Shown in pieces: positions 11,459-36,590 of a stretch of 36,590 nt of DNA. The first letter of the stretch is position 1, and every line of letters starts with the position of its first letter. The notes under the pieces were generated by a model. The model was not told the DNA's origin. It worked only from the letters and a program-made list of their open reading frames with translations, and did no database searches. The position numbers were made by a program, and so were the translations under genes. The stretch comes from Kiloniellaceae bacterium (lineage in GTDB: Bacteria > Pseudomonadota > Alphaproteobacteria > Kiloniellales > J153), in NCBI GenBank assembly GCA_046759925.1, contig JBHIDD010000001.1, positions 1 to 36,590 on the forward strand, read 5' to 3'.

Positions 11459-11484
11459 CCGAAGACCGCGAGGACCAGACATCG

Positions 11485-12663
11485 ATGAGCCTCGATCCGA
11501 GCCCACTCGGCGGTACCTGGAGCTTTCCGACCCAGATCCGCTTCGGCCTCGGCCGGATCAAAGAGCTCGCCGGGGCCTGCCGCAGCCTCGGCATGGCCCG
11601 GCCGCTGCTGGTCACCGATCCGGGCCTGGCCGAGCTTCCCATGGTGCGCGACGCGCTTGCCGCCAACGAGGCCGCGGGGTTGCCGACCGGCCTGTTCACC
11701 GGCGTCAAGCCGAACCCGGTGGGCCGGAACGTGGGCGACGGTCTCGAGGCCTTCCGCCGAGGCGGCCACGACGGCGTCATCGGGTTCGGCGGCGGTAGCG
11801 GGCTGGACGCCGCCAAGGCGATCGCCTTCATGGCCGGGCAGAGCCAACCGATGTGGGACTTCGAGGACCGGGGCGACAACTGGAAGGCCGCCGACGCGCA
11901 AGGCATCGCACCGATCGTCGCGGTGCCGACCACGGCGGGCACCGGCTCCGAGGTGGGCCGGGCCTCGGTCATCCTGGACGAGGCGAGCCAGACCAAGAAG
12001 GTCATCTTCCATCCCAAGATGCTGCCCGGAATCGTGATCTCCGATCCGGCGCTGACCGTCGGCCTGCCGCCGCAGATCACGGCGGCGACCGGCATGGACG
12101 CGCTGGCCCACTGCCTCGAGGCCTACTGCGCGCCGGGCTATCACCCCATGGCCGAGGGCATCGCGGTCGAGGGCATGCGCCTCATCAAGGGCTGGCTGCC
12201 GAAGGCGGTGGCCGACGGGACCGACCTGGCGGCGCGAGCCAACATGCTGGCCGCCGCGAGCATGGGCGCGACCGCCTTCCAGAAGGGCCTGGGCGCGATC
12301 CATTCGCTCAGCCACCCGGTGGGCGCGCTTTACGATACCCACCACGGGCTCACCAACGCCGTGGTCATGCCCTACGTGCTGGCCTACAACCGCGCCGCGA
12401 TCGAGGACAAGCTGACCCGCCTTGCCGCCTGGCTGGACCTGCCGAACCCGTCGTTCCAGGCGGTCATGGACTGGGTGCTGGCGCTCAGGCGCGCGCTTGC
12501 GATCCCGCATACGCTCAAAGACCTCGGCGTCGGCGACGAGCGCCTGGACGAGCTTTCCGAGATGGCCGCCCGGGACCCGACCGCGCCGGGCAATCCGATC
12601 CCGGTCGGCGTGCCGGAGCTCAAGACCATGTACCTCGCCGCGCTCGAGGGCCGGCTGGCGTAG
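11485..12663 (+). CDS. Iron-containing (group III) alcohol dehydrogenase
   Basis: 392 aa starting at MSLDPS. It has the Fe-ADH motifs GFGGGSGLDAAKAIA, AVPTTAGTGSE and the His cluster (DALAHCLEAY ... IHSLSHPVG). It starts 26 nt after the ALDH stop, so the two are probably an operon. Confidence 0.9.
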   Translation: MSLDPSPLGGTWSFPTQIRFGLGRIKELAGACRSLGMARPLLVTDPGLAELPMVRDALAANEAAGLPTGLFTGVKPNPVGRNVGDGLEAFRRGGHDGVIGFGGGSGLDAAKAIAFMAGQSQPMWDFEDRGDNWKAADAQGIAPIVAVPTTAGTGSEVGRASVILDEASQTKKVIFHPKMLPGIVISDPALTVGLPPQITAATGMDALAHCLEAYCAPGYHPMAEGIAVEGMRLIKGWLPKAVADGTDLAARANMLAAASMGATAFQKGLGAIHSLSHPVGALYDTHHGLTNAVVMPYVLAYNRAAIEDKLTRLAAWLDLPNPSFQAVMDWVLALRRALAIPHTLKDLGVGDERLDELSEMAARDPTAPGNPIPVGVPELKTMYLAALEGRLA

Positions 12664-26752: not shown

Positions 26753-27040
26753 CTAGACCGCGCTCCCCCAGTATTCCCACAGAAGGTTGCGGGCGAACCA
26801 GATCAGCAGCAAAAGCGCGAGCGGCGCCAGGTCGATGCCGCCCAGGACCGGCAGGATGCCGCGGATGGGCCGCAGCCCCGGCTCGGTCAGGCGGTGCAGG
26901 AACCCGCCCACCGTGCTGACGAACCGGTTGTAAGTGTTGATCACGTTGAAGGCGATCAGCCAGCTCATGATCACGTAGAGGATGATGGTCCACAAGTAAA
27001 GTCCCAGGACCGTGTCGACCAGCAGATAGAGGGATTTCAT
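26753..27040 (-). CDS. yggT: YggT-family small membrane protein
   Basis: 95 aa with two hydrophobic segments and the YggT-like motifs (LYLWTIILYVIMSWL ... LTEPGLRPIRGILP..GGIDLAPL). Confidence 0.8.
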   Translation of the reverse strand: MKSLYLLVDTVLGLYLWTIILYVIMSWLIAFNVINTYNRFVSTVGGFLHRLTEPGLRPIRGILPVLGGIDLAPLALLLLIWFARNLLWEYWGSAV

Positions 27041-27157
27041 CGGCGAGTCCGCAAGCGGGGACGGGGAACGAATCGGCCGTTAGCGTAACGGGCACTTCGG
27101 GGCGAGACAAGGCGGTCCCGCCCCGGGGCGCCGCCGCGCCGCGGCGGCTTGGTCCGC

Positions 27158-27186
27158 TTGACAGGGGCAGGCGTTGTTCCCATTAT
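27158..27186 (+). promoter_or_regulatory. Putative sigma70 promoter for tRNA-Ala
   Basis: TTGACA (27158-27163), a 17-nt spacer and CATTAT (27181-27186), about 65 nt upstream of the mature tRNA 5' end. Confidence 0.45.
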
Positions 27187-27250
27187 CCGCGCGCCCGAGG
27201 CCGGGCCTTGACGGCCGAGTCGGGCCTTCCCAAGTCCACGGAGCGGGCGT

Positions 27251-27326
<76 letters not shown>

Positions 27327-27357
27327 CCCGGTCCTTGGGTTTATTCCCTCTCTTGTA

Positions 27358-27395
27358 GGCGGACGCAGTTCTCGCGCGGTTTCCGCGCGTCCGCC
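27358..27395 (+). terminator. GC-rich bulged hairpin downstream of tRNA-Ala (possible terminator; no U tract)
   Basis: ggcggacgc ... gcgtccgcc forms the outer stem, with an inner cgcgcgg-ttt-ccgcgcg stem. It is followed by ccgtagtcc rather than a T run. Confidence 0.3.
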
Positions 27396-27517
27396 CCGTA
27401 GTCCTTCCGAAAGTTGCGCCGAGGGACGGCGAAGTCCGCAGTCTCCTGGCGAAAACGGCCGCGTCTCTTTCTTGGCCGAATTCGGTGTCCATAACTTTCG
27501 ATGATGGTTGCCGCTGC

Positions 27518-27668
27518 GCGCGGCGGTTCGCGCAAGCGCCCAGGCGATGGCATCGATGTGCCAGTTGTGACGATAGGCGTCGCCCGGAGACACGGTCCGG
27601 AAGGCTTTCTGGACGAAGCTCGAGAGGTCGCTGCGCAGGAGCGCTGTTAAGACGTCGCGATCGCTCAT
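27518..27668 (-). pseudogene. 5' stub (~50 codons) of a phage terminase large subunit gene
   Basis: MSDRDVLTALLRSDLSSFVQKAFRTVSPGDAYRHNWHIDAIAWAL matches the conserved TerL N-terminus (L..DF..F....F......f..nWH...i...L). Similarity is lost afterwards, and the reading frame runs into the tRNA gene. Its ATG overlaps the upstream stop as ATGA (27665-27668). Confidence 0.65.
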
Positions 27669-28231
27669 TCCTCCGGCTCCTCCTCCTGCTCGTCGCCCGC
27701 ATTTGTCGCCTTCTTGGCCTGGTGCTCTCGAATGGTCCGATCCTTGAAGCGCTCAAGAATGTCCTGGTCCGCCTGGGAGAGCGCGCGTTCGGCTTCCTCG
27801 GCCGCTTCCTCCTTGCCGTAGCGCTCGGCCAGACCGAGGAAGCGATCGCGGGCGTGCCGGTCGCCCTTGAGGGCCGTGGCGCGCAGCTGTTTGAGGGCGG
27901 CGCGCTGGCTGGAGACCGTCGTAGCGCGCCCGTCCTGCCGGAGACTGACGGGCTCGGCCAGCTCCTCGCGCAGGTCGGTTCGAAAGTTCCTGGTGCCCTT
28001 GGGCCGGCCCTTCGGGTTGCCGGAGCGGCCCTTCGGGAAGCGCGTGTGGGCGGGCTTCGCAAAACCTGCTGGACTTTTAAGCGCTTGCAGAGTGATCTTG
28101 GCCCGGCCATTCGTGGCCGGATCAAGAACACTCTGCTTAGGCTTGCAAAAATGTGGAAGACGAGGCGGCCGGAGCATGTGGTCATATCGATGACTTCGGT
28201 CAGCGAACGAACTCCCGTATCCCGAGATCAA
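27665..28231 (-). CDS. DUF5681-type phage protein (occupies the small-terminase position). The native 5' end has been replaced by repeat copy C, so it may be a pseudogene.
   Basis: RFPKGRSGNPKGRPKGTRNF is the hallmark DUF5681 N-terminal motif, followed by a helical acidic tail. Residues upstream of this motif are encoded by the MITE/REP-like copy C. The only in-frame starts (28231 and 28177) lie beyond or inside the repeat. Confidence 0.55.
   Translation of the reverse strand: MISGYGSSFADRSHRYDHMLRPPRLPHFCKPKQSVLDPATNGRAKITLQALKSPAGFAKPAHTRFPKGRSGNPKGRPKGTRNFRTDLREELAEPVSLRQDGRATTVSSQRAALKQLRATALKGDRHARDRFLGLAERYGKEEAAEEAERALSQADQDILERFKDRTIREHQAKKATNAGDEQEEEPEE
28039..28141 (+). repeat. Copy C of the MITE/REP-like element, missing the outer ~25-bp arm
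   Basis: agcgcgtgtgggcgggcttcgcaaaacctgctggacttttaagcgcttgcagagtgatcttggcccggccattcgtggccggatcaagaacactctgcttagg aligns to 969-1071 with a handful of mismatches. Confidence 0.85.
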
Positions 28232-28237
28232 CCGGGC

Positions 28238-28543
28238 TCAGGTCGGCTCGGCTGCTAGTTCGGGGTTGAAAATGCCCCGGCGTACGTTGCTGATCTCGAC
28301 GCGCTCGAACAGGCCGGCCTTGGTGAACGGGTCGCCCTCCGAGAAGGCCTCGGCGGCCTTGCGGTCCGGTACGCTGACGATGAAGAAGCTGCCGTAGAGC
28401 GTCTTGCCGTCGTCTTCCTGCCTGGCGCCGGCCCAGATCAATTTGTCCAACTGGGTGTTCAGATAATCGACGTGGAAATGGAGGTTTTCTGTCCGCAGCT
28501 TGGCCGCGTTCGGCTTGTCGCTGCAGTGAATGACGAAATACAT
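28238..28543 (-). CDS. YciI-family protein
   Basis: 101 aa: MYFVIHCSDKPNAAKLRTENLHFHVDYL......GSFFIVSVPDRKAAEAFSEGDPFTKAGLFERVEI. This is the typical YciI-like fold signature. The start is set at ATG 28543; the longer track ORF adds an Arg-rich extension. Confidence 0.8.
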   Translation of the reverse strand: MYFVIHCSDKPNAAKLRTENLHFHVDYLNTQLDKLIWAGARQEDDGKTLYGSFFIVSVPDRKAAEAFSEGDPFTKAGLFERVEISNVRRGIFNPELAAEPT

Positions 28544-28829
28544 GGCGAAAGCTTCTTCCGGTCTAATCTGAGGATGGAATTCTCTCCGACGCGAATGGCT
28601 CCTTCCGGTCCCGCGGCCGCGAGTCCAGGTATTTTGTCTGCTTCTGGTGGACTCGAGACCAGTTCTCGCACGTCCGAATCGCAGTGCCTGGGGCCGATGG
28701 CAATTTTCCGGCCGCCTCCCGGTATCCATGGGATGCCGGTGCAGTAACGGATTCCTCCGTTTTGCTGGCGGTTTCAACCCTTTTTCCTGACGATTTCAGA
28801 CGCGGTCCCCGGCCAAGCCAACGCCGCCG

Positions 28830-28858
28830 TTGACATGCAATTCGATGTTGATCATAGT
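28830..28858 (+). promoter_or_regulatory. Putative sigma70 promoter of the transport/aminotransferase cluster
   Basis: TTGACA (28830-28835), a 17-nt spacer and CATAGT (28853-28858), in an AT-rich stretch. It is followed by tctaga / tatata palindromic sequence. Confidence 0.4.
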
Positions 28859-28894
28859 TCTAGAGCTATATAGGTATATCCGAAAATCGCAATC

Positions 28895-28926
28895 ATGTCC
28901 CGATGATTCCATTGTCCCGGTGATTC
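28895..28926 (+). promoter_or_regulatory. Tandem 15-bp direct repeat in the 5' leader (candidate regulator binding site)
   Basis: atgtcccgatgattc (28895-28909) and ttgtcccggtgattc (28912-28926) match at 13 of 15 positions, with a 17-bp periodicity. They lie between the putative promoter and the SBP start. Confidence 0.4.
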
Positions 28927-29015
28927 ATGAACGCTTCGCGGCCATCTGGGCCTGGAGGAATCGATATCGGGAAGAGCGGTTGACGTGCGAACGCACAAAT
29001 AGGGAGGAAGAGGAG

Positions 29016-30086
29016 ATGCGTGGATGCAAACTAGAATACCTCACCGCGGTCTTCGTCGGTGTGGGGATCATCGCCGCGGCGTTGAGCGTGCCGGTACCGG
29101 CGAGCGCCGATGGAAAACTGACCATCACATCGTTTGGCGGCTCTTTCCAGGAGGCGCAGCGCAAGGCTTGGTTCGAGCCGTTCGCGAAGGAGAAAAACGT
29201 TAACGTTCTCGAAGACGAATGGAGCGGCGAGATGGCCAAGCTTCGGGCCATGGTCCAGTCCGGAAACGTGACCTGGGACGTGGTCGGCATTTCTGATGGA
29301 CAGCTTCCGCTTGCGTGTGACGAAGGATTGGTCGAACCCATTGATCCCGCAATGTTCGGCGGCAAGGACAATTTTCTCCCGGGCTGGACCCATGAATGTG
29401 GTGTCGGCGCCATCATCGCCTCGATCGTGATTGGCTATAACGCCGAAAAGTTCCCTGGCGAAAAGCCGAATACCCTGGCCGATTTTTGGGACGTCGAGAA
29501 GTTCCCCGGACCCCGTGCCATGAAAAAATGGCCCAAGCACAACCTGGAATTCGCGCTGTTGGCGGACGGGGTTTCTCCTGGAGAGCTGTACGACGTATTG
29601 GGCACCGACGAAGGCGTCGCGCGCGCCTTCAAGAAGCTGGACGAGATCAAGCCGCATGTGAAGGTCTGGTTCACCAATTGGGCACAGCCGGGTCAATTGT
29701 TGGCCGATGGCGAGGTGATCATGTCCACCGGGACCAATGGGCGTCTCGGGGTTGCTGCCAAATCGGCCCCGCAGATCGAGTTCTTCTGGGACCGCCAGGG
29801 CTATAGCGGCGACATGTGGGCGATCGTGAAGGGCGCCAAGAATAAGGCGAACGCGATTGAGTTCATCAAGTATGCCAGCCAACCCAAGAACGCGGCCCGG
29901 ATTGTCGAACACATCTTGTATCCGCCGCCGGTGCCGAAGGCCTTGGCGGCAATGCCTCCGGAGCTCGCCAAGGAGATGCCAATCAACCCGGACAACCTGA
30001 AGACGGCCTGGGTTGTTAACTCCCGGTTTTGGGGCGATCACCTCGACGACTACGAAATCCGTTTCCAGGCCTGGCTGGGACAATAA
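29016..30086 (+). CDS. ABC transporter periplasmic substrate-binding protein (PotD/PotF-like extracellular solute-binding family)
   Basis: 356 aa. The signal-peptide-like N-terminus is MRGCKLEYLTAVFVGVGIIAAALSVPVPASA. The mature part (KLTITSFGGSFQEAQRKAWFEPF ... WDV...) is typical of polyamine/opine-type SBPs. GGGAGGAAGAGGAG lies just upstream of ATG 29016. Confidence 0.8.
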   Translation: MRGCKLEYLTAVFVGVGIIAAALSVPVPASADGKLTITSFGGSFQEAQRKAWFEPFAKEKNVNVLEDEWSGEMAKLRAMVQSGNVTWDVVGISDGQLPLACDEGLVEPIDPAMFGGKDNFLPGWTHECGVGAIIASIVIGYNAEKFPGEKPNTLADFWDVEKFPGPRAMKKWPKHNLEFALLADGVSPGELYDVLGTDEGVARAFKKLDEIKPHVKVWFTNWAQPGQLLADGEVIMSTGTNGRLGVAAKSAPQIEFFWDRQGYSGDMWAIVKGAKNKANAIEFIKYASQPKNAARIVEHILYPPPVPKALAAMPPELAKEMPINPDNLKTAWVVNSRFWGDHLDDYEIRFQAWLGQ

Positions 30087-30128
30087 GGCCCGATAACGCG
30101 TAAGTGTCACGGCGCAGATACCGGCAGA

Positions 30129-30160
30129 CGCGGCCCGGACAAGCGCCAGCCCGGGCCGCG
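30129..30160 (+). terminator. GC-rich hairpin after the SBP gene (possible attenuating or terminating structure; no U tract)
   Basis: cgcggcccgg (30129-30138) pairs with ccgggccgcg (30151-30160), giving a 10-bp stem and a 12-nt loop, 43 nt after the SBP stop. Confidence 0.3.
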
Positions 30161-30409
30161 CCGTCGGTGCAATTCGGCGGGATCCTCATTGACGCTTCCG
30201 TGGTTCCCCCGACATTCGATAAACCTGTTAACCTATCCACGCGCTGCCAACACGCACTCGCTCATGTATCGGAGGTGGGGCTGGATCGGCGGCAATGGCT
30301 TGGGATAACAGGATCACGACCGCCCGAGGGACGACTGAGATAATTGCCGGTGGGAATACGGGGAGGGAAAATATCGGCCGGTTCGGCCCACGTGTGAGAG
30401 AGAACGCGG

Positions 30410-31738
30410 ATGTTTCCCGATTTCAAATCCCGGTCAGGAAAATTATACGAACGGGCCTGCGAGGTCATGCCGGGCGGCAACACGCGCACCAGCCTATATT
30501 GGCCACCGCATCAAATTTACGCCGCGTATGCCTCTGGGACCCGAGTCGTCGACGTCGATGGCGTGGAGCGGGTCGACCTGAACAACAACTTCACCGCGCT
30601 CATCCATGGGCATGCCCATCCAGTAATCGTCGAGCGCGTCCAAGAGCAAATTGGCCGTGGCGCATGCGTCGGCATGGCGACGGAATCGGAAATAGCGCTC
30701 GCCGAGCTTATCTGTTCGCGCGTGCCCTCGATCGAACACATTCGCTTCGCCAATTCCGGCACCGAAGCGGTGCTGGCCACGATCAAGGCGGCGCGCGCAT
30801 ACACCATGCGTCCAAAGATCGCGAAGTGCGAAGGCGTCTATCACGGCACCTCGGACCTCATGGAAATCAGCAACGCCTCCTCGCCCAGGGAGTGGGGGGA
30901 CGAAGCAGCTCCGGCGTCCGTACCGATGTCTCGGGGCACGCCGGAAGGGGTTCTCAAGGACATCATCATCCTGCCGTTCAATAACACCGCGGCGTCCGAA
31001 CGTCTCTTGAAACGCCATGCGCATGAACTAGCCGGAGTGATCATCGATCCGATGCCGGTTCGCTCCGGGCTGATCCCGGCCAAACGGGAATACCTGGACA
31101 TGCTGCGCACGTTCACGCGCCGCAACAATTCCGTCCTCGTCTTCGACGAGGTGCTGACTTTCCGTCTCGGGTATCACGGCGCCCAGACTGTGTTCGGTTG
31201 CGAACCGGACCTCACGGCCTTGGGCAAGATCATCGGCGGCGGCATGCCCGTGGGGGCCGTGGCTGGGAAGCGGGAAATCATGTCCGTCTTCGACCCGCGG
31301 GAGGGATTCGCCGCGTGGCATGGTGGCACGTTCAACGGCAACCCGACGACCATGGTCGCGGGTCTGGCGTGCCTGGAGCTGTTGACTCCGGAGGCCTTCG
31401 AGTGGTTGGACAACCTGGGCGCACGCGCCCGGAGAAGAGTCCGCGAAGTCTTCGGCGCCGCTCGTGCATCCGGGCAGGTCACGGGAGCCGGGTCGCTTTT
31501 CCGAATCCATTGCACCAGTCGGCCGCTCTCAAGTTACCGCACTTTCTATCCATCGCCCGAGGAGGTGCGGAACCTCGAGTGGCTGATGGTGTACTTGCTG
31601 AACCACGGGTTCCTGATGACCAAGATGGGGACCGGCGCATTGTCCACGGTAACGACCGAAGCGGAGATCGACCAGTTCGGTGAAACTCTGTTCGCCGGGC
31701 TGAACGCGATGAAAAAGGAAGGGCTCGCGGCGGAATGA
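30410..31738 (+). CDS. Class-III (fold type I) PLP aminotransferase, glutamate-1-semialdehyde aminomutase (HemL)-like paralog 1
   Basis: 442 aa containing LYERACEVMPGGNTR, FANSGTEAVLATIKAARAYT and a LTALGKIIGGGMPVGAVAG (PLP-Lys) motif. The true HemL motif GGVNSPVRAF is replaced by GGNTRTSLY, so this is not hemL itself. Confidence 0.8.
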   Translation: MFPDFKSRSGKLYERACEVMPGGNTRTSLYWPPHQIYAAYASGTRVVDVDGVERVDLNNNFTALIHGHAHPVIVERVQEQIGRGACVGMATESEIALAELICSRVPSIEHIRFANSGTEAVLATIKAARAYTMRPKIAKCEGVYHGTSDLMEISNASSPREWGDEAAPASVPMSRGTPEGVLKDIIILPFNNTAASERLLKRHAHELAGVIIDPMPVRSGLIPAKREYLDMLRTFTRRNNSVLVFDEVLTFRLGYHGAQTVFGCEPDLTALGKIIGGGMPVGAVAGKREIMSVFDPREGFAAWHGGTFNGNPTTMVAGLACLELLTPEAFEWLDNLGARARRRVREVFGAARASGQVTGAGSLFRIHCTSRPLSSYRTFYPSPEEVRNLEWLMVYLLNHGFLMTKMGTGALSTVTTEAEIDQFGETLFAGLNAMKKEGLAAE

Positions 31739-31762
31739 GCCCAGGCGTGGAGGAGCGTTGAG

Positions 31763-33094
31763 ATGTTTCCCGATCCCAATTCCCGATCGGCCAAGCTGTT
31801 CGAACGTGCCCAGAAGGTCTTGGCCGGTGGCAACACCCGGTTCGCGGTCTATACGGCTCCCTATCAGGTTTATGCCGTCCGCGGTTCGGGGTCCCGGGTC
31901 GTCGACGTCGATGGCGTCGAGCGTCTGGATCTGCAGAACAACATGACCGTGCTCATTCACGGCCACGCCCACCCGGCCATCATGGAAAGAGTGCGCGAGC
32001 AACTGGAGCGCGGGACCTGCTTCGGTCTGTCGACGGAATCTGAAATTGCCTTGGCCGAGGTCCTGTGTTCCCGCGTTCCCTCCTTCGACATAGTAAGGTT
32101 TGTGAACTCGGGCACCGAAGCGGTCATGACCGCCATGAAGGCGGCGCGCGCCTATACCGGCCGGCCGAAGATCGCCAAGGCTGAAGGGTCCTATCACGGG
32201 TCCTACGATTACGCCGAGGTCAGCCTTGATTCCACGCCCGAGAACTGGGGCGATCTCGATCGGCCCAATTCGGTGCCCTACGCAGTAGGAACGCCACAGG
32301 GTGTACTCGAAGACGTCGTCGTCCTCCCGTTCAACGACCCCGACCAGGCGTTGCGGATCCTCGAGACGCAAAAGGACGAATTGGCGGGTGTGTTGATTGA
32401 CCCGCTTCCGGGCCGGTTCGGGCTGATCCCGGCTACCCCGGATTTCCTCGACATGGTCCGAGGCTTCACCCGGCGCACCGGTTCGCTGCTGATTTTCGAC
32501 GAGGTTATTTGCTTCCGCCTTGGTTACCGGGGCGCTCAGACCGAGTTCGAGTGCGAACCGGACCTGACGGCACTGGGCAAGGTGGTCGGCGGCGGCTTCC
32601 CGATTGGCGTGGTGGCGGGACGAAAAGACGTGATGTCCGTTTTCGATCTGACCAGGGACCGGCCACCGGTATTCCAAGGCGGCACCTTCAACGCCAACCC
32701 GGTGTCGATGGTCGCAGGATTGGCAGCGATGGAGTTGTTGACGCCGACGGTATTTGATCGGCTGAACGGCCTTGGGGCCCTAGCGCGCGCAAAGATGGCC
32801 GAGGCTTTCGTGACCGCCGGGGCGCCCGGGCAGGTGACGGGCATGGGGTCGCTATTCCGGATTCATACCACCGACCGGGCCATCTCGGACTACCGCACAT
32901 ATTATCCGTCGGCGGCGGAAAAGCAGGAGCTTGAATGGCTCTGGCGGTACCTGCTGAACCACGGAATATTGATCACGAAAATGGGCATGGGCGCCTTGTC
33001 CACGGTGACGACCGAAGCGGAAATAGAGCTGTTCAGCGAGACCCTTCTCGGCGGTCTGCAAGAGATGCAAAGTGAGGGAATTGCTGCAGCATAG
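31763..33094 (+). CDS. Class-III PLP aminotransferase, HemL-like paralog 2 (tandem duplicate of 30410-31738)
   Basis: 443 aa, colinear with paralog 1 and roughly 60% identical or more by eye (MFPDPNSRSAKLFERAQKVLAGGNTR, NSGTEAVMTAMKAARAYTGRPKIAKAEGSYHG, LTALGKVVGGGFPIGVVAG). GGAGGAG lies upstream of the ATG. Confidence 0.8.
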   Translation: MFPDPNSRSAKLFERAQKVLAGGNTRFAVYTAPYQVYAVRGSGSRVVDVDGVERLDLQNNMTVLIHGHAHPAIMERVREQLERGTCFGLSTESEIALAEVLCSRVPSFDIVRFVNSGTEAVMTAMKAARAYTGRPKIAKAEGSYHGSYDYAEVSLDSTPENWGDLDRPNSVPYAVGTPQGVLEDVVVLPFNDPDQALRILETQKDELAGVLIDPLPGRFGLIPATPDFLDMVRGFTRRTGSLLIFDEVICFRLGYRGAQTEFECEPDLTALGKVVGGGFPIGVVAGRKDVMSVFDLTRDRPPVFQGGTFNANPVSMVAGLAAMELLTPTVFDRLNGLGALARAKMAEAFVTAGAPGQVTGMGSLFRIHTTDRAISDYRTYYPSAAEKQELEWLWRYLLNHGILITKMGMGALSTVTTEAEIELFSETLLGGLQEMQSEGIAAA

Positions 33095-33218
33095 GGTCGT
33101 CTCCCGGGAGCGGCCACGAACGCCGGTCTTGTTCGGGACCCGGACCGGACTGGCTGCTTGGTGTGAGTGTCCGCTCGGCCCTGCCGCAGCCGTTTCATGC
33201 TGATCCAGGTTTTGGGAC

Positions 33219-34145
33219 ATGACCGCACGCCCCAATGAGCGGATCGCCTATTTCAACGGCGAATACGTGCCCGAGCGCGAAGTCCGTGTTCCGTTCCGGG
33301 ACCACAGTTTCAAGTATGGCGACGGCGTCTTCGACATGACGCGCACGTTCAACGGCTGTGCTTTCAAGGTCAAGGAACACGTGGACCGGCTGTACAGGTC
33401 GCTACGCTACGCGCAGATCGATGTCGGGCTCGGCCCCGAGGAGTCCATGGCCATCTGGGAGGAGGTGCTGGACCGCAACCGCCATCTGCGCGGCGACAAC
33501 GGGGATTTCTGGCTCGGCCAACGAGCCTCGCGCGGTATCGATGCCGTGGGCGACGAAGGCTGGGACGACACCGGCCCTACCGTCATCGTCGAATGCCTGC
33601 CCCTGCCGTTGAAGGCCCGAGCGCGCATGTTCCGCGACGGGATCCAGGTGATCGTGCCTTCGGTCCGGCGTATGCCGGCGGTTTCGCTCAGTCCGCGGGC
33701 CAAGACCCACATCATCATGCCCCTGCTCATGGCCGAATTTGAAGTCCGGGGGCAAAATCCGGATGCCTGGCCGATCCTGCTGGATCAAAACGGCAACCTC
33801 GCCGAAGGCCGTGGCTCCAACATATTCCTGGTCCGTGACCACGCCGTCTTTACGCCCAGGGAACAGTATGTTCTCCGGGGAATCAGCCGACAAACGGTGA
33901 TCGACCTGGCGCGTGACCTGGACATTCCTGTCGTCGAGACGGATCTCGACCTCTACGACGCCTACAATGCCGATGAGATCTTCATCACGTCGACAAGCTG
34001 GTGCATTTGCCCGGTCAGCCGCTTCAATCACGTCACGGTCTCCGAGGACCGGGTGCTCGGCCCCGTTACCGAGAGGCTGATCAAGGCCTATATCGAATTG
34101 GTCGGCTGCGACTTCGTGCAACAATACCTCGCCCATCTGGAATGA
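33219..34145 (+). CDS. Class-IV (fold type IV) PLP aminotransferase (BCAT / D-amino-acid / R-selective amine transaminase family)
   Basis: 308 aa containing YFNGEYVPEREVRVPFRDHSFKYGDGVFDMTRTF..........HVDRLYRSL (typical class-IV N-terminus), a candidate PLP lysine in SPRAKTH, and the C-terminal EIFITST. Confidence 0.8.
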   Translation: MTARPNERIAYFNGEYVPEREVRVPFRDHSFKYGDGVFDMTRTFNGCAFKVKEHVDRLYRSLRYAQIDVGLGPEESMAIWEEVLDRNRHLRGDNGDFWLGQRASRGIDAVGDEGWDDTGPTVIVECLPLPLKARARMFRDGIQVIVPSVRRMPAVSLSPRAKTHIIMPLLMAEFEVRGQNPDAWPILLDQNGNLAEGRGSNIFLVRDHAVFTPREQYVLRGISRQTVIDLARDLDIPVVETDLDLYDAYNADEIFITSTSWCICPVSRFNHVTVSEDRVLGPVTERLIKAYIELVGCDFVQQYLAHLE

Positions 34146-34182
34146 GCGCCAGCCTGGAGTCGAGATCGTTGGTGGCGAACCA

Positions 34183-35307
34183 ATGAACGAACGCGCCGGC
34201 CAAGTGGAATCATCCGCGACCAAAGACGGGTTCGTCAATTTCATAAACGTCCAGAAAACCTATGACGGCGAGACGCTGGTCATCAAGGATTTGAACCTTA
34301 CGATCCGCCGGGGCGAGTTCCTAACCCTCCTGGGACCTTCCGGTTCAGGCAAAACCACCACGCTTCTGATGCTTGCCGGCTTCGAGCATCCGACGAGCGG
34401 GGAGATCCAGATCGAAGGCCGGTCTCTGGCGCGGGAGCCCGCGCACCGTCGCGACCTCGGTATGGTGTTCCAGGATTACGCCCTGTTCCCGCACATGACA
34501 GTGGCGGAAAACGTCGCGTTTCCCTTGGCCATCCGCAAACGCGCCAAGCAAGAGATCGTCTCGAAAACGCAGGCCGTGCTGGATATGGTGAAGCTGGGCG
34601 GCTATGGCGACCGGCAACCGTCGCAGCTCTCAGGAGGTCAGCAGCAGCGCGTCGCCCTGGCCCGCGCCCTGGTATTTCAGCCGCGGCTGGTGCTGATGGA
34701 CGAGCCGCTCGGCGCCCTGGACAAACAGCTTCGCGAGCAGATGCAGCTGGAGATCAAGCACATCCAGAATGATCTCGGAATCACGGTTGTCTACGTGACC
34801 CATGATCAGTCAGAGGCATTGATCCTGTCCGACCGGATTGCCGTATTCAACGACGGCAGTATCTATCAACTCGGTACTCCGGACGAACTTTACGAGCACC
34901 CTCAGAACGCGTTTGTGGCGCAGTTCGTCGGGGAGAACAACCGGCTCTACGGCAAGGTCGTCGGCATCGATGAGAGGTTCTGCGAGGTCGCGCTCGAGGC
35001 CGGCGGCGTGGTGAAGGCCGTGCCGGTCAAGGTTGACAACATCGGGTCGCGGACCCTGATTTCGGTACGGCCCGAGCGGGTCGTCCTCAACCCGGACGGG
35101 GGTCATTGCCAGAACATCTTTCACGCCCGGATCGAGGAGCTAATCTACCTGGGGGATCACACCCGGGTCAGGGTTAGCCTGTCCGAGACGGCCTCGGACT
35201 TCGTCGTCAAGGTCCCGTTGCACGAGGGACGCCACGGGTTCCGGGTAGGAAAGGAAATCGAGATCGGCTGGCCCGCGGAGCACTGCCGTGCCCTGGATGC
35301 GCCATGA
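34183..35307 (+). CDS. ABC transporter ATP-binding protein (PotA/MalK-like, with a C-terminal TOBE-type regulatory domain)
   Basis: It has Walker A (GPSGSGKTT), the Q-loop, the signature LSGGQQQRVALARAL, Walker B (LVLMDEPLGALD) and the H-loop (VTHDQSEA). Confidence 0.9.
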   Translation: MNERAGQVESSATKDGFVNFINVQKTYDGETLVIKDLNLTIRRGEFLTLLGPSGSGKTTTLLMLAGFEHPTSGEIQIEGRSLAREPAHRRDLGMVFQDYALFPHMTVAENVAFPLAIRKRAKQEIVSKTQAVLDMVKLGGYGDRQPSQLSGGQQQRVALARALVFQPRLVLMDEPLGALDKQLREQMQLEIKHIQNDLGITVVYVTHDQSEALILSDRIAVFNDGSIYQLGTPDELYEHPQNAFVAQFVGENNRLYGKVVGIDERFCEVALEAGGVVKAVPVKVDNIGSRTLISVRPERVVLNPDGGHCQNIFHARIEELIYLGDHTRVRVSLSETASDFVVKVPLHEGRHGFRVGKEIEIGWPAEHCRALDAP

Positions 35308-36557
35308 CCGAGACGGTCGTCATTGGCGGGATAGCAGACGTCGATAAGGTCGCGCTCAAGAGGCAGCTGCAGCGCACGGAACGGGCGCGCAAACTGGTCG
35401 CCATCGGCCTGATCGCACCGCTGTTGCTGTTCATCTTCATCAACTTTGTCGTCCCTGTGGGCGTCATCCTATTCAAAAGCATCGATGACCGTGAAGTCAG
35501 CACCATCCTCCCCCGGGCCACCGAAGCGCTGTCTCAATGGGAGGGCGAGGGGCTGCCCGGAGACGACGCCTTCAAGGCGCTCTTTATCGACATGCGCGAG
35601 GCGCAGAAGGCGCGGAGCCTGGTCAAGGCCGGCAAGCGGCTCAACAGCGCCAAGTCCGGGTTCAACGCGCTGATTGGCAAGACCGGGCGGCGGCTTCCGA
35701 AGAGCGACCCGGAGTCCTACAAGGACGCGCTGATCAAGTTGGATAAGCGGTGGGGAGACCGCGCTTACTGGATCGTGCTCAAGCGCACCGCAAATCCGGT
35801 TACGCCTATCTATCTGCTGTCCGCCTTCGACTTGACCATGGACCAACAAGGCGACGTCGTTCGGGTCCCCAAATACCAGCGGATTTTCAACAAGACCTGG
35901 GTTCGGACCTTCTGGATGAGTTTGGTCATCACGATGATCTGCACCGTGCTTGGCTATCCTCTGGCCTACGTGATGGCGAACCTGCCGACGCGGGTCAGCA
36001 ACATTCTGATGATCCTTGTCTTGATCCCGTTCTGGACATCGCTTTTGGTGCGCACGACCGCCTGGTTGGTCCTGCTGCAGAACCAGGGGGTGGTCAACGA
36101 TTTCGGAATTTTCCTGACCCTGTGGTCGGAGAGGCTGCAGCTGATCCACAACCGGTTCGGCGTCTTCATCACGATGTCCCACATCCTGCTGCCGTATATG
36201 GTGCTGCCCCTTTTCGCCATCATGAAACGGATACCGGCGAGTTACGTTCGGGCCGCCAAGTCGCTGGGCGCGAATCCGCTCGTCGCTTTTTTGAAGGTAT
36301 ATCTGCCGTTGACCATCCATGGGGTCGGCGCGGGCGCGTTGTTCGTGTTCATCCTGTCGATTGGCTTTTACATCACCCCGGCGCTGGTCGGCGGCCGCAA
36401 TGACCAGATGATCAGCTACTTCATTGCGTTTTACACGAACGAAGTCTTGAACTGGGGCGCGGCGGCGGCGCTGAGCGCCGTGTTGCTGGTGCTGACCGGC
36501 GCGGTGTTCTACGCCTTCAAGACGACATTCGGTCTCGACAAGATGCAGATTCGGTAG
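35304..36557 (+). CDS. ABC transporter permease (PotB-like) with a ~140-aa periplasmic insertion after TM1
   Basis: 417 aa. Its start overlaps the ATPase stop (ATGA). TM1 (LVAIGLIAPLLLFIFINFVVPVGVILF) is followed by a long hydrophilic segment, then five hydrophobic helices and an EAA-like loop (AAKSLGANPLVAFLKVYLPL). Confidence 0.85.
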   Translation: MTETVVIGGIADVDKVALKRQLQRTERARKLVAIGLIAPLLLFIFINFVVPVGVILFKSIDDREVSTILPRATEALSQWEGEGLPGDDAFKALFIDMREAQKARSLVKAGKRLNSAKSGFNALIGKTGRRLPKSDPESYKDALIKLDKRWGDRAYWIVLKRTANPVTPIYLLSAFDLTMDQQGDVVRVPKYQRIFNKTWVRTFWMSLVITMICTVLGYPLAYVMANLPTRVSNILMILVLIPFWTSLLVRTTAWLVLLQNQGVVNDFGIFLTLWSERLQLIHNRFGVFITMSHILLPYMVLPLFAIMKRIPASYVRAAKSLGANPLVAFLKVYLPLTIHGVGAGALFVFILSIGFYITPALVGGRNDQMISYFIAFYTNEVLNWGAAAALSAVLLVLTGAVFYAFKTTFGLDKMQIR

Positions 36558-36568
36558 GGGCCAAGGGC

Positions 36569-36590
36569 ATGAAATTCGATTTCTTGTTCT
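36569..36590 (+). CDS. Start of the next ORF (probably the second ABC permease), cut by the window end
   Basis: ATG at 36569, 11 nt after the previous stop and preceded by a G-rich stretch. The translation is MKFDFLF. Only 7 codons are visible, and the call rests on operon context. Confidence 0.3.

Follow-up and report, generated by a model that had tools for sequence, protein, structure and literature searches.

A predicted β-amino-acid uptake and transamination operon with paired StoTA-type transaminases on a Kiloniellaceae contig

Gene layout and the predicted importer

The window analysed here is one whole contig (JBHIDD010000001.1, positions 1–36,590; 36,590 nucleotides) of a Kiloniellaceae metagenome-assembled genome (MAG; GCA_046759925.1) that is 82% complete and consists of 415 contigs. 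The ArgG protein of this alphaproteobacterium shows 86–87% identity to its counterparts in Kiloniellales MAGs. From about position 28830 to the contig end, the forward strand carries genes for a periplasmic solute-binding protein (SBP), two paralogous class-III pyridoxal phosphate (PLP) aminotransferases (AT1 and AT2), a class-IV aminotransferase, the ATPase and one permease of an ATP-binding cassette (ABC) importer, and the first codons of a second permease. These genes form the 5′ portion of a predicted catabolic operon some 11–12 kb long. We consider it likely that the front half of the operon imports a β- (or γ-) amino acid and deaminates it to a 3-oxoacid, with CoA activation and thiolysis following downstream. 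The window encodes the import and transamination steps only; the later steps are inferred from relatives, and the corresponding genes would lie past the contig end. The gene order, gaps, overlaps, motifs and GC drop described in a first-pass annotation of this DNA agree with the map of open reading frames (ORFs). That annotation had also proposed a survey of the gene order in other genomes; the same order recurs on independent metagenome contigs, which rules out a chance juxtaposition of the genes.

The SBP gene was listed as an ORF spanning 28830–30086. Translation very probably begins at the ATG at 29016, since a protein beginning there has a signal peptide and lines up with the N-terminus of the homologue on L009, a related metagenome contig; position 28830 itself falls on the −35 hexamer of a promoter-like site. 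The SBP thus delimited (29016–30086, + strand) matches the Pfam family SBP_bac_8 (E 1e-42) and belongs to the clade of Atu4243, Pf622, AgtB and MotA. Its matches in the Protein Data Bank (PDB) are 4I1D, which is uncharacterised (2e-54), AgtB (9e-50), Pf622 (2e-47) and Atu4243 (2e-46), compared with 5e-12 for the polyamine binder PotD and about 1e-5 for PotF. On the corresponding polyamine models it scores 44.7 against a cut-off of 582 (PotD) and 22.9 against a cut-off of 636 (PotF). AgtB and MotA are agropinic-acid and mannopine binders, and both Atu4243 and the sensor protein Pf622 bind γ-aminobutyrate (GABA); in Atu4243, GABA lies between aromatic side chains and an arginine binds its carboxylate (PMC3656012). 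Because the SBP groups with these GABA and opine binders, and not with PotD or PotF, its ligand is more likely to be a zwitterionic amino acid than a polyamine. The SBPs of four related contigs (L009, L010, L011 and L271) are 64–81% identical to it.

The ATPase (34183–35307, +) is of the PotA type, with ABC_tran and TOBE_2 domains, and passes the broad potA subfamily model TIGR01187 (365.1 bits against a cut-off of 355.6). Permease 1 (35304–36557, +; 417 residues) is PotB/PotH-like; the BPD_transp_1 domain covers residues 217–403, PotB aligns from residue 188, and the score on the PotB model is 150.5 against a cut-off of 348. A polyamine importer of the PotABCD or PotFGHI kind was rejected, since only the ATPase reaches a cut-off, and does so on the broad potA subfamily model. 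Permease 2, a PotC/PotI-like protein cut by the contig end, is represented by its first seven codons (36569–36590, +), and their translation, MKFDFLF, equals the start of the permease-2 gene at position 7423 of L009.

In permease 1, the first transmembrane helix is followed by a loop of ~140 residues (about 58–197; nucleotides about 35475–35894) that matches no Pfam model and is predicted to be periplasmic from the basic N-terminus. The insertion had been described in the first-pass annotation as unusual. It is real, but it is a trait of the permease subfamily rather than a unique feature: the loop recurs in 522 representative proteins, in all of them at about positions 55–200 of permeases of 390–430 residues. 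The relatives of permease 1 discussed below have 412–417 residues. Among known systems, the importer resembles the Atu4243 GABA importer of Agrobacterium and Pf622, the scaffold of iGABASnFR, which belong to the same SBP clade (E about 1e-46 to 1e-47). The Atu4243 system likewise pairs its SBP with a PotA/B/C-type ABC core; unlike that system, the importer in the window has transaminase genes embedded in it and carries the ~140-residue permease loop.

The StoTA-type transaminases and the proposed fate of their product

AT1 (30410–31738, +) and AT2 (31763–33094, +) are Aminotran_3 proteins of the class-III lineage that resembles glutamate-1-semialdehyde 2,1-aminomutase (GSAM, HemL). The best PDB match of both is StoTA (6K8H), over nearly the full length (E 3e-126 for AT1 and 2e-140 for AT2), followed by ForI, then by MesAT and VpAT, and then by true GSAMs at about 1e-70. 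AT2 and StoTA share about 55% of their residues. When AT1 and AT2 were placed against characterised GSAM-like enzymes, two trees put them inside the StoTA/β-transaminase family, and the clade of StoTA, ForI, AT1 and AT2 has a support of 100/99. The alignments display the two features that had been read from the letters alone, namely the PLP lysine context, which is kept in both proteins (LGKIIGGGMPVGA and LGKVVGGGFPIGV), and the GGNTR(T/F) signature. The N-terminal motif is GGNTRTSLY in AT1 and GGNTRFAVY in AT2, at the place where Aeropyrum GSAM has GGVNSPVRA. Its arginine aligns with R36 of StoTA (GGNTRT; the motif is GGNTRS in MesAT and GGNSRT in ForI), a residue proposed to hold the substrate carboxylate (PMC10589169). 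StoTA converts aliphatic, branched and aromatic β-amino acids, and also 4-aminopentanoate, a γ-amino acid (PMC10589169). AT1 and AT2 are predicted to be fold-type-I β/γ-amino-acid transaminases of the StoTA type.

A tetrapyrrole role as HemL, which had been discounted on first inspection, is ruled out by the hemL scores, the missing GGVNSPVR motif and the presence of 5-aminolevulinate (ALA) synthase in the genome. On TIGR00713, AT1 and AT2 score 318.5 and 329.3 bits against an equivalog cut-off of 527.3, and none of the five GSAM-like loci of the genome reaches this cut-off (best score, 335 bits). The ALA synthase scores 659.5 bits against a cut-off of 338.6; in a genome that is 82% complete, its presence leaves the absence of the C5 pathway unproven. 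On another contig of the same genome (C332, 193–1356), a GSAM-like aminotransferase domain opens a frame of about 750 residues that extends past the domain and may be part of a multidomain protein of the polyketide synthase/nonribosomal peptide synthetase type, like the aminotransferase domain of mycosubtilin synthase. The JGI entries of the transaminase family are mostly named 'glutamate-1-semialdehyde 2,1-aminomutase', a name that is probably wrong; with thousands of family proteins labelled GSAM in public metagenome annotations, this would amount to systematic misannotation.

StoTA, an ω-transaminase from Sphaerobacter thermophilus (Mathew 2016; Kwon 2019; Wegner 2023), has in common with AT1 and AT2 the GSAM-like class-III architecture of fold type I, the arginine of GGNTR, the context of the PLP lysine and the HGGTFN segment. 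In contrast to StoTA, AT1 and AT2 fall in a clade of their own (100/99) and carry a conserved K/R beside the position of the switching arginine of MesAT, which StoTA does not have; in the AT2 clade, Q replaces the H of HGGTFN. Work on StoTA has treated it as an isolated biocatalyst, and the literature searched describes neither an operon nor a physiological role for it. MesAT (2YKU) and VpAT (4AO9) are of the same GSAM-like lineage, use GGNTR to hold the carboxylate of a β-amino acid, and have a catabolic role yielding a 3-oxoacid, as is proposed here for AT1 and AT2. They are more distant (E about 1e-66 to 1e-73) and lie outside the StoTA family in the tree. Their known substrates are aromatic, and the resulting keto acid decarboxylates spontaneously; a linked CoA-transferase/thiolase module is unmentioned in the literature searched.

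Ten neighbourhoods of close homologues (59–81% identity) were compared. In eight of them, an enzyme that needs a 3-oxoacid or a 3-oxoacyl-CoA lies beside the transaminase, either a BKACE cleavage enzyme or a 3-oxoacid CoA-transferase accompanied by DUF35 and a thiolase of the SCP-x type, and a route through a 3-oxoacid is therefore indicated. The same importer, including a permease 1 of 412–417 residues, is present on five contigs (L009, L010, L011, L271 and the P0010 contig), and downstream of it all five have genes for a Thiolase_C_1 protein and for a DUF35 (zf-ChsH2/OB_ChsH2_C) protein. L271 serves as the model of the complete operon, with genes for an SBP, one transaminase, the ATPase, permeases of 417 and 278 residues, CoA-transferase subunits A and B, thiolase and DUF35, and a divergent GntR/UTRA gene; the proteins it has in common with the window are 63–73% identical. 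L009 contains an SBP, a remnant of AT1, AT2, the class-IV enzyme, the ATPase, two permeases, a decarboxylase, thiolase and DUF35. L010 and the P0010 contig both have an SBP, a transaminase, ABC genes, thiolase and DUF35; the P0010 contig carries an AMP-binding ligase and no CoA-transferase. L011 contains a BKACE gene in addition to its importer/thiolase/DUF35 operon.

Other neighbourhoods combine the transaminases with the same downstream enzymes in different settings. L099 has AT1, AT2, CoA-transferase A/B, thiolase and DUF35 and no transporter, L100 adds a TRAP transporter (a carrier of carboxylates) to the same enzymes, and on the P0027 contig two transaminases are paired with BKACE. BKACE and an acyl-CoA ligase also lie near a homologue on a Sphingobium plasmid. 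The CoA-transferase subunits of L099 pass the 3-oxoacid CoA-transferase models, as does the CoA-transferase of L271, and the thiolase of L099 passes PRK06158. The closest structures to the thiolase and DUF35 proteins are SCP-x-type thiolases/lipid-transfer proteins with DUF35 partners (4U4E, 9MYR, 6OK1, BbsB and an archaeal complex). L078, from Cloacimonadota, contains a KamA-like aminomutase, CoA-transferase A/B, a transaminase of the same family and a 3-oxoadipyl-CoA thiolase, and follows the same logic, from β-amino acid to 3-oxoacid, CoA ester and thiolysis. There, the KamA-type aminomutase would make the β-amino acid internally and the thiolase is of the classical 3-oxoadipyl-CoA kind, whereas the operon type of the window imports its substrate and has an SCP-x-type thiolase with DUF35 in the relatives.

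In the proposed pathway, the GABA/opine-type SBP would capture the substrate, and the PotA-type ABC importer, made up of the ATPase and two permeases, would carry it inward; this uptake half is predicted by homology. AT1 and AT2 would move the β-amino group to pyruvate or 2-oxoglutarate and so yield a 3-oxoacid, as expected from their family, with the arginine of GGNTR holding the substrate carboxylate. CoA activation of this unstable product would fall to a two-subunit 3-oxoacid CoA-transferase (in some relatives, to an acyl-CoA ligase), after which the SCP-x-type thiolase and its DUF35 partner would split the thioester into acetyl-CoA and a shorter acyl-CoA. The presence of both AT1 and AT2 would most likely broaden or split the substrate range, with the class-IV enzyme acting as an accessory partner, and a GntR/UTRA repressor would regulate the operon. 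The substrate is predicted to carry its amino group off the α carbon and is most probably an aliphatic β-amino acid, a γ-amino acid being possible; 3-aminobutyrate would be the simplest candidate. The first-pass annotation had proposed uptake plus deamination of a non-standard amine, β-amino acid or D-amino acid. Its general outline gains support from the StoTA family and the GABA/opine-clade SBP, but a D-α-amino acid is not favoured as the substrate.

Several observations weigh against this pathway. The CoA-transferase or ligase, thiolase, DUF35 and regulator genes lie outside the window and were not found on the other contigs of the MAG, where tblastn searches for a continuation of the operon with the permease-2, decarboxylase, thiolase, DUF35 and BKACE sequences of L009 and L011 returned nothing at 1e-15. 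The context loci are all metagenomic and uncharacterised, and several 50%-identical homologues lie in unrelated contexts. The family includes other roles, such as those of ForI in formycin biosynthesis and of Kat, which acts on a CoA ester. In addition, the MfnA-like group-II PLP decarboxylase (255 bits against a cut-off of 299) that occurs in L009 (8299–9543) and L011 (10730–11923), and also in L101 (571–1815), is unexplained by a simple β-amino-acid scheme.

The example of Kat, 3-aminobutyryl-CoA aminotransferase, raises the alternative of a reverse order of steps, in which the CoA-transferase or ligase first forms a β-aminoacyl-CoA from the imported β-amino acid, AT1 and AT2 transaminate the thioester to a 3-oxoacyl-CoA, and the thiolase cleaves this product. 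Kat is HemL-like and biochemically characterised (Perret et al. 2011, PMC3149608). It operates in variant lysine fermentation, is misannotated as GSAM, and performs a β-transamination that feeds a thiolase, with CoA-transferase and BKACE genes associated. Homologues from Cloacimonadota and Bacteroidales (46–48% identity), which are presumed Kat orthologues from their phylum and a neighbouring thiolase, belong to the same broad family as AT1 and AT2. Their motif (GGVSR) also contains the conserved arginine, which is therefore non-discriminating, and the AMP-binding ligase of the P0010 contig, in an operon without CoA-transferase, would suit the formation of the thioester before transamination. 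However, a long stem (0.72) sets the clade of these Kat-like sequences (motif GGVSRN) apart, while AT1 and AT2, like StoTA, branch from a short stem among generic members of the family. AT2 is also closer to StoTA, a free-acid enzyme (~55% identity), than to the Kat-like sequences (46–48%), and the CoA-transferases of L099 and L271 pass the model for 3-oxoacids. Kat, unlike AT1 and AT2 as proposed, acts on a CoA ester, and its context is anaerobic lysine fermentation with no ABC importer. We regard the reverse order as unlikely. An identity of AT1 or AT2 with Kat itself was rejected, as both lie outside the Kat-like clade and no kam or kdd genes are present in the window, L009, L010 or L271.

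A still less probable alternative is that the operon handles an ordinary ω-amine or ω-amino acid (putrescine, cadaverine, GABA or β-alanine), as the Pot, Spu and Gab systems do, with no β-keto acid chemistry. The importer lends it some credit, with an ATPase above the potA subfamily cut-off, PotB/H-like permeases, and the GABA binders Atu4243 and Pf622 among the relatives of the SBP. StoTA also takes a γ-amino acid, and in three loci (L020, L050 and L104) StoTA-like transaminases accompany hydantoinase/lactamase-type genes able to yield ω-amino acids. The SBP, however, scores far below the PotD and PotF cut-offs given above, and none of the five relatives that have the importer carries an aldehyde or semialdehyde dehydrogenase with the operon. 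The thiolase and DUF35 genes, with or without CoA-transferase or BKACE, always follow instead, and these enzymes need a 3-oxo acid.

Microbial β-amino-acid breakdown is poorly charted. The locus and its relatives make up a coherent operon type, with an ABC importer, one to three transaminases, CoA-transferase, SCP-x thiolase/DUF35 and GntR. If the 3-oxoacid pathway holds, the operon would explain how an unstable 3-oxoacid is captured instead of being lost by decarboxylation. The enzymes are of known families; the literature searched contained no characterisation of the operon architecture, of paired paralogous β-transaminases or of the class-IV subfamily described below, and relative to it the operon and this subfamily are new. 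The AT1 and AT2 clades and the class-IV subfamily offer candidate β/γ-amino-acid transaminases, some perhaps of complementary stereoselectivity.

The paralogous pair and the class-IV enzyme

AT1 and AT2 are 63% identical over 442 residues, in line with an estimate of roughly 60% or more made by eye in the first-pass annotation. In the tree, the AT1 clade has a support of 100/100 and the AT2 clade of 100/99, and the two unite in a clade of 20 rows (100/99). Within each of them, AT1 or AT2 has separate orthologues of 81–87% identity. Twenty-two alignment columns are fixed differently between the two, several of them in the N-terminal substrate-binding segment (e.g. W31/T31 and F61/M61). The trees place AT1 and AT2 as ancient paralogues in separate, well-supported clades, and both trees rule out a recent tandem duplication.

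Two homodimeric enzymes that differ in substrate range, by chain or by enantiomer, are most likely. The heteromer suggested as an option in the first-pass annotation, an obligate AT1/AT2 heterodimer in which the tandem pair is one enzyme, is very improbable: the tandem is conserved in the window (with a 24-bp spacer) and in L099, the 22 discriminating columns could mirror complementary interfaces, and class-III active sites lie at the dimer interface, but operons of the same type have a sole transaminase from the AT2 clade (L010 and the P0010 contig) or from the AT1 side (L011 and L271), the AT1 of L009 is a remnant lacking the 5′ two-thirds while its AT2 is intact, and both AT1 and AT2 contain the full set of catalytic motifs.

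The class-IV gene (33219–34145, +) encodes a non-canonical PLP aminotransferase of fold type IV (Aminotran_4, E 1e-38) that falls below every NCBIfam cut-off, including those for branched-chain aminotransferase (BCAT), D-amino-acid aminotransferase (DAAT) and ADCL. The catalytic lysine (RAKTH), the PLP-binding glutamate (AEGRGSNIF) and GISR are retained. The closest structures are archaeal BCATs (5MQZ and 5E25/5CM0; 34–35% identity, TM about 0.8), which share the lysine, the glutamate and GI(S/T)R but differ in the fingerprints for substrate binding. Relative to the BCATs of A. fulgidus and Geoglobus, Y-I-R is replaced by W-L-G (followed by Q-R), G-T-A-A by S-T-S-W, and G38 by M, and the class-IV enzyme contains a 4-residue insertion. 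The replaced elements are those which we take to be the α-carboxylate fingerprint of BCAT (Y95-x-R97, G38 and G-T-A-A in E. coli numbering).

Assignment as a BCAT was rejected on this replaced fingerprint and on the scores, which are 170 against a cut-off of 245 on TIGR01122 and 184 against 363 on PRK08320. The hallmark of DAAT is an Arg/His loop after a conserved RG; in the class-IV enzyme SRG is followed by IDAVGDE, with no R-x-H, and DAAT was rejected also on TIGR01121 (119 against 277) and PRK06680 (141 against 320). In the comparison with the (R)-amine transaminase (R-ATA) of Shinella (6XU3), KYGDGVFDMTR lines up with HSDLTYDVPAV and DFWLGQ with DAYVMM, and the known R-ATA fingerprint is absent. 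The classification by published motifs that had been called for thus leaves the enzyme matching none of the known BCAT, DAAT and R-ATA fingerprints. In a Foldseek search, the AlphaFold model (pLDDT 89) matched BCATs best and (R)-amine transaminases next (TM about 0.8), which confirmed fold type IV but did not discriminate between specificities.

By alignment, the class-IV enzyme is classed as a member of a large unnamed subfamily that does not have the BCAT carboxylate fingerprint. The subfamily comprises more than 120 clusters at 60% identity or above, with proteins of ~308 residues whose invariant positions include R27, R42, W98, Q101, R102 and T257-S-T-S260. In public databases its members are annotated as 'branched-chain amino acid aminotransferase', a name that is probably wrong. 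Among 80 species genomes with the subfamily, a GSAM-like transaminase lies within 10 kb in 28, and a Pot-like ABC transporter was found in 15. The partner is StoTA-like in L104, L020 and L050/L051, often with hydantoinase A/B genes, and comes from another GSAM-like subfamily in Reyranella-type loci. Three of these loci, from unrelated genomes (L020, 3699–12616; L050, 3260–10605; L104, 868–10918), combine a StoTA-like transaminase and the class-IV subfamily with hydantoinase/oxoprolinase A/B genes; L020 additionally has an M20 peptidase and an FGase-like amidohydrolase. These loci may encode a route from a lactam or hydantoin to an amino acid and then to a keto acid.

In the operon, the class-IV enzyme is probably an accessory partner with a stereo-preference opposite to that of AT1 and AT2. 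The stereo-complementary transaminations suggested in the first-pass annotation would fit this partner best, and an enantio-complementary role would be the most attractive reading because ω-transaminases of fold type I are typically (S)-selective and those of fold type IV (R)-selective. A more specific proposal, to which we give a low probability, is that the rebuilt pocket, with W-x-G-Q-R in place of the Y-x-R of BCAT and T-S-T-S in place of G-T-A-A, takes (R)-β/γ-amino acids. The enzyme would then be a natural (R)-selective β-amino-acid transaminase and, with AT1 and AT2, would provide stereo-complete deamination of β-amino acids supplied as racemates or mixtures. The proposal draws its plausibility from the wide distribution of the subfamily, from its position beside a GSAM-like transaminase in 28 of the 80 genomes, and from the unexplained degradation of (R)-β-amino acids, the mechanism for (R)-β-phenylalanine having been reported as unknown (PMC6150868).

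Regulation and genomic setting

A candidate σ70-like promoter (28830–28858, +), with TTGACA, a 17-nt spacer and CATAGT, lies upstream of the SBP start; it is a pattern match only, at 10/12 in a consensus scan. The 323-bp intergenic region between the SBP and AT1 genes (30087–30409, +) contains a GC-rich hairpin at about 30129–30160 that is present in both the minimum-free-energy and the centroid folds and has no U-tract. The whole gap folds no better than shuffled sequences (z = −0.23). Comparison with L099 (760–1097) revealed conservation at the DNA level upstream of AT1, in several blocks, among them the GC hairpin (ACGCGGCCCGG...CCGGGCCGCG) and a block with TTCGATAAACCTG. In L099, no SBP gene precedes this conserved region. 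The gap could be a regulatory or processing element. Hairpins located 3′ of binding-protein genes commonly stabilise the upstream transcript; here, an internal promoter or operator is equally possible. Apart from the tRNA described below, an Rfam search of positions 27000–36590 with permissive E-values returned nothing. The ATPase and permease 1 genes meet in an ATGA overlap.

ORF and family scans found no regulator in the visible part of the cluster, as had been noted in the first-pass annotation, which suggested looking for one elsewhere. Among the relatives, a GntR/UTRA (HutC-type) gene is present upstream of the operon in L011 and downstream in L271 and the P0010 contig. By analogy, a GntR/UTRA repressor is the likely regulator.

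The cluster is a mobile cassette that this lineage acquired horizontally beside a tRNA-Ala gene, with the right border past the contig end, as concluded from its left edge, its absence from related genomes and the repeats around the L009 operon. At the left edge, tRNA-Ala(CGC) (27251–27326, +; ARAGORN) is the likely anchor of the island. Next comes a decayed remnant of phage packaging genes (27297–28231, −), composed of a DUF5681 gene (Pfam, E 2e-20) and a short ORF running into the tRNA, then a YciI-like gene and a change in GC content from about 0.70 upstream to 0.58–0.63 from about 28000 onward. AT homologues above about 40% identity are absent from all 13 genomes of the same family, and only three genomes of the same order contain one, at 48–54% identity. 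In L009, the syntenic contig closest to the window, a 64-nt direct repeat (84% identical; 467–530 and 11898–11961) flanks the whole operon from SBP to DUF35, and a 34-nt inverted repeat is present at 11481–11514 and 11856–11889; these repeats suggest movement as a cassette. The exact cluster is not present in species-representative genomes, where StoTA-like homologues have at most 57% identity and lie mostly in other contexts, and the synteny described above therefore rests on metagenome contigs.

The YciI-like gene (28238–28540, −; Pfam YCII, E 1e-17) occupies the stretch from the phage remnant to the candidate promoter of the transporter genes; the ORF as listed has ~78 extra 5′ residues, which are probably not translated. 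Plasmids contain only homologues of at most 55% identity, in different contexts. One of these plasmid genes (L273; Sphingobium sp. TomMM15 plasmid AP027315.1, 162710–164038) encodes a StoTA-family homologue of ~49% identity and bears the name atrB, an annotation from tomato-associated Sphingobium plasmids, with genes for BKACE and a long-chain acyl-CoA ligase nearby.

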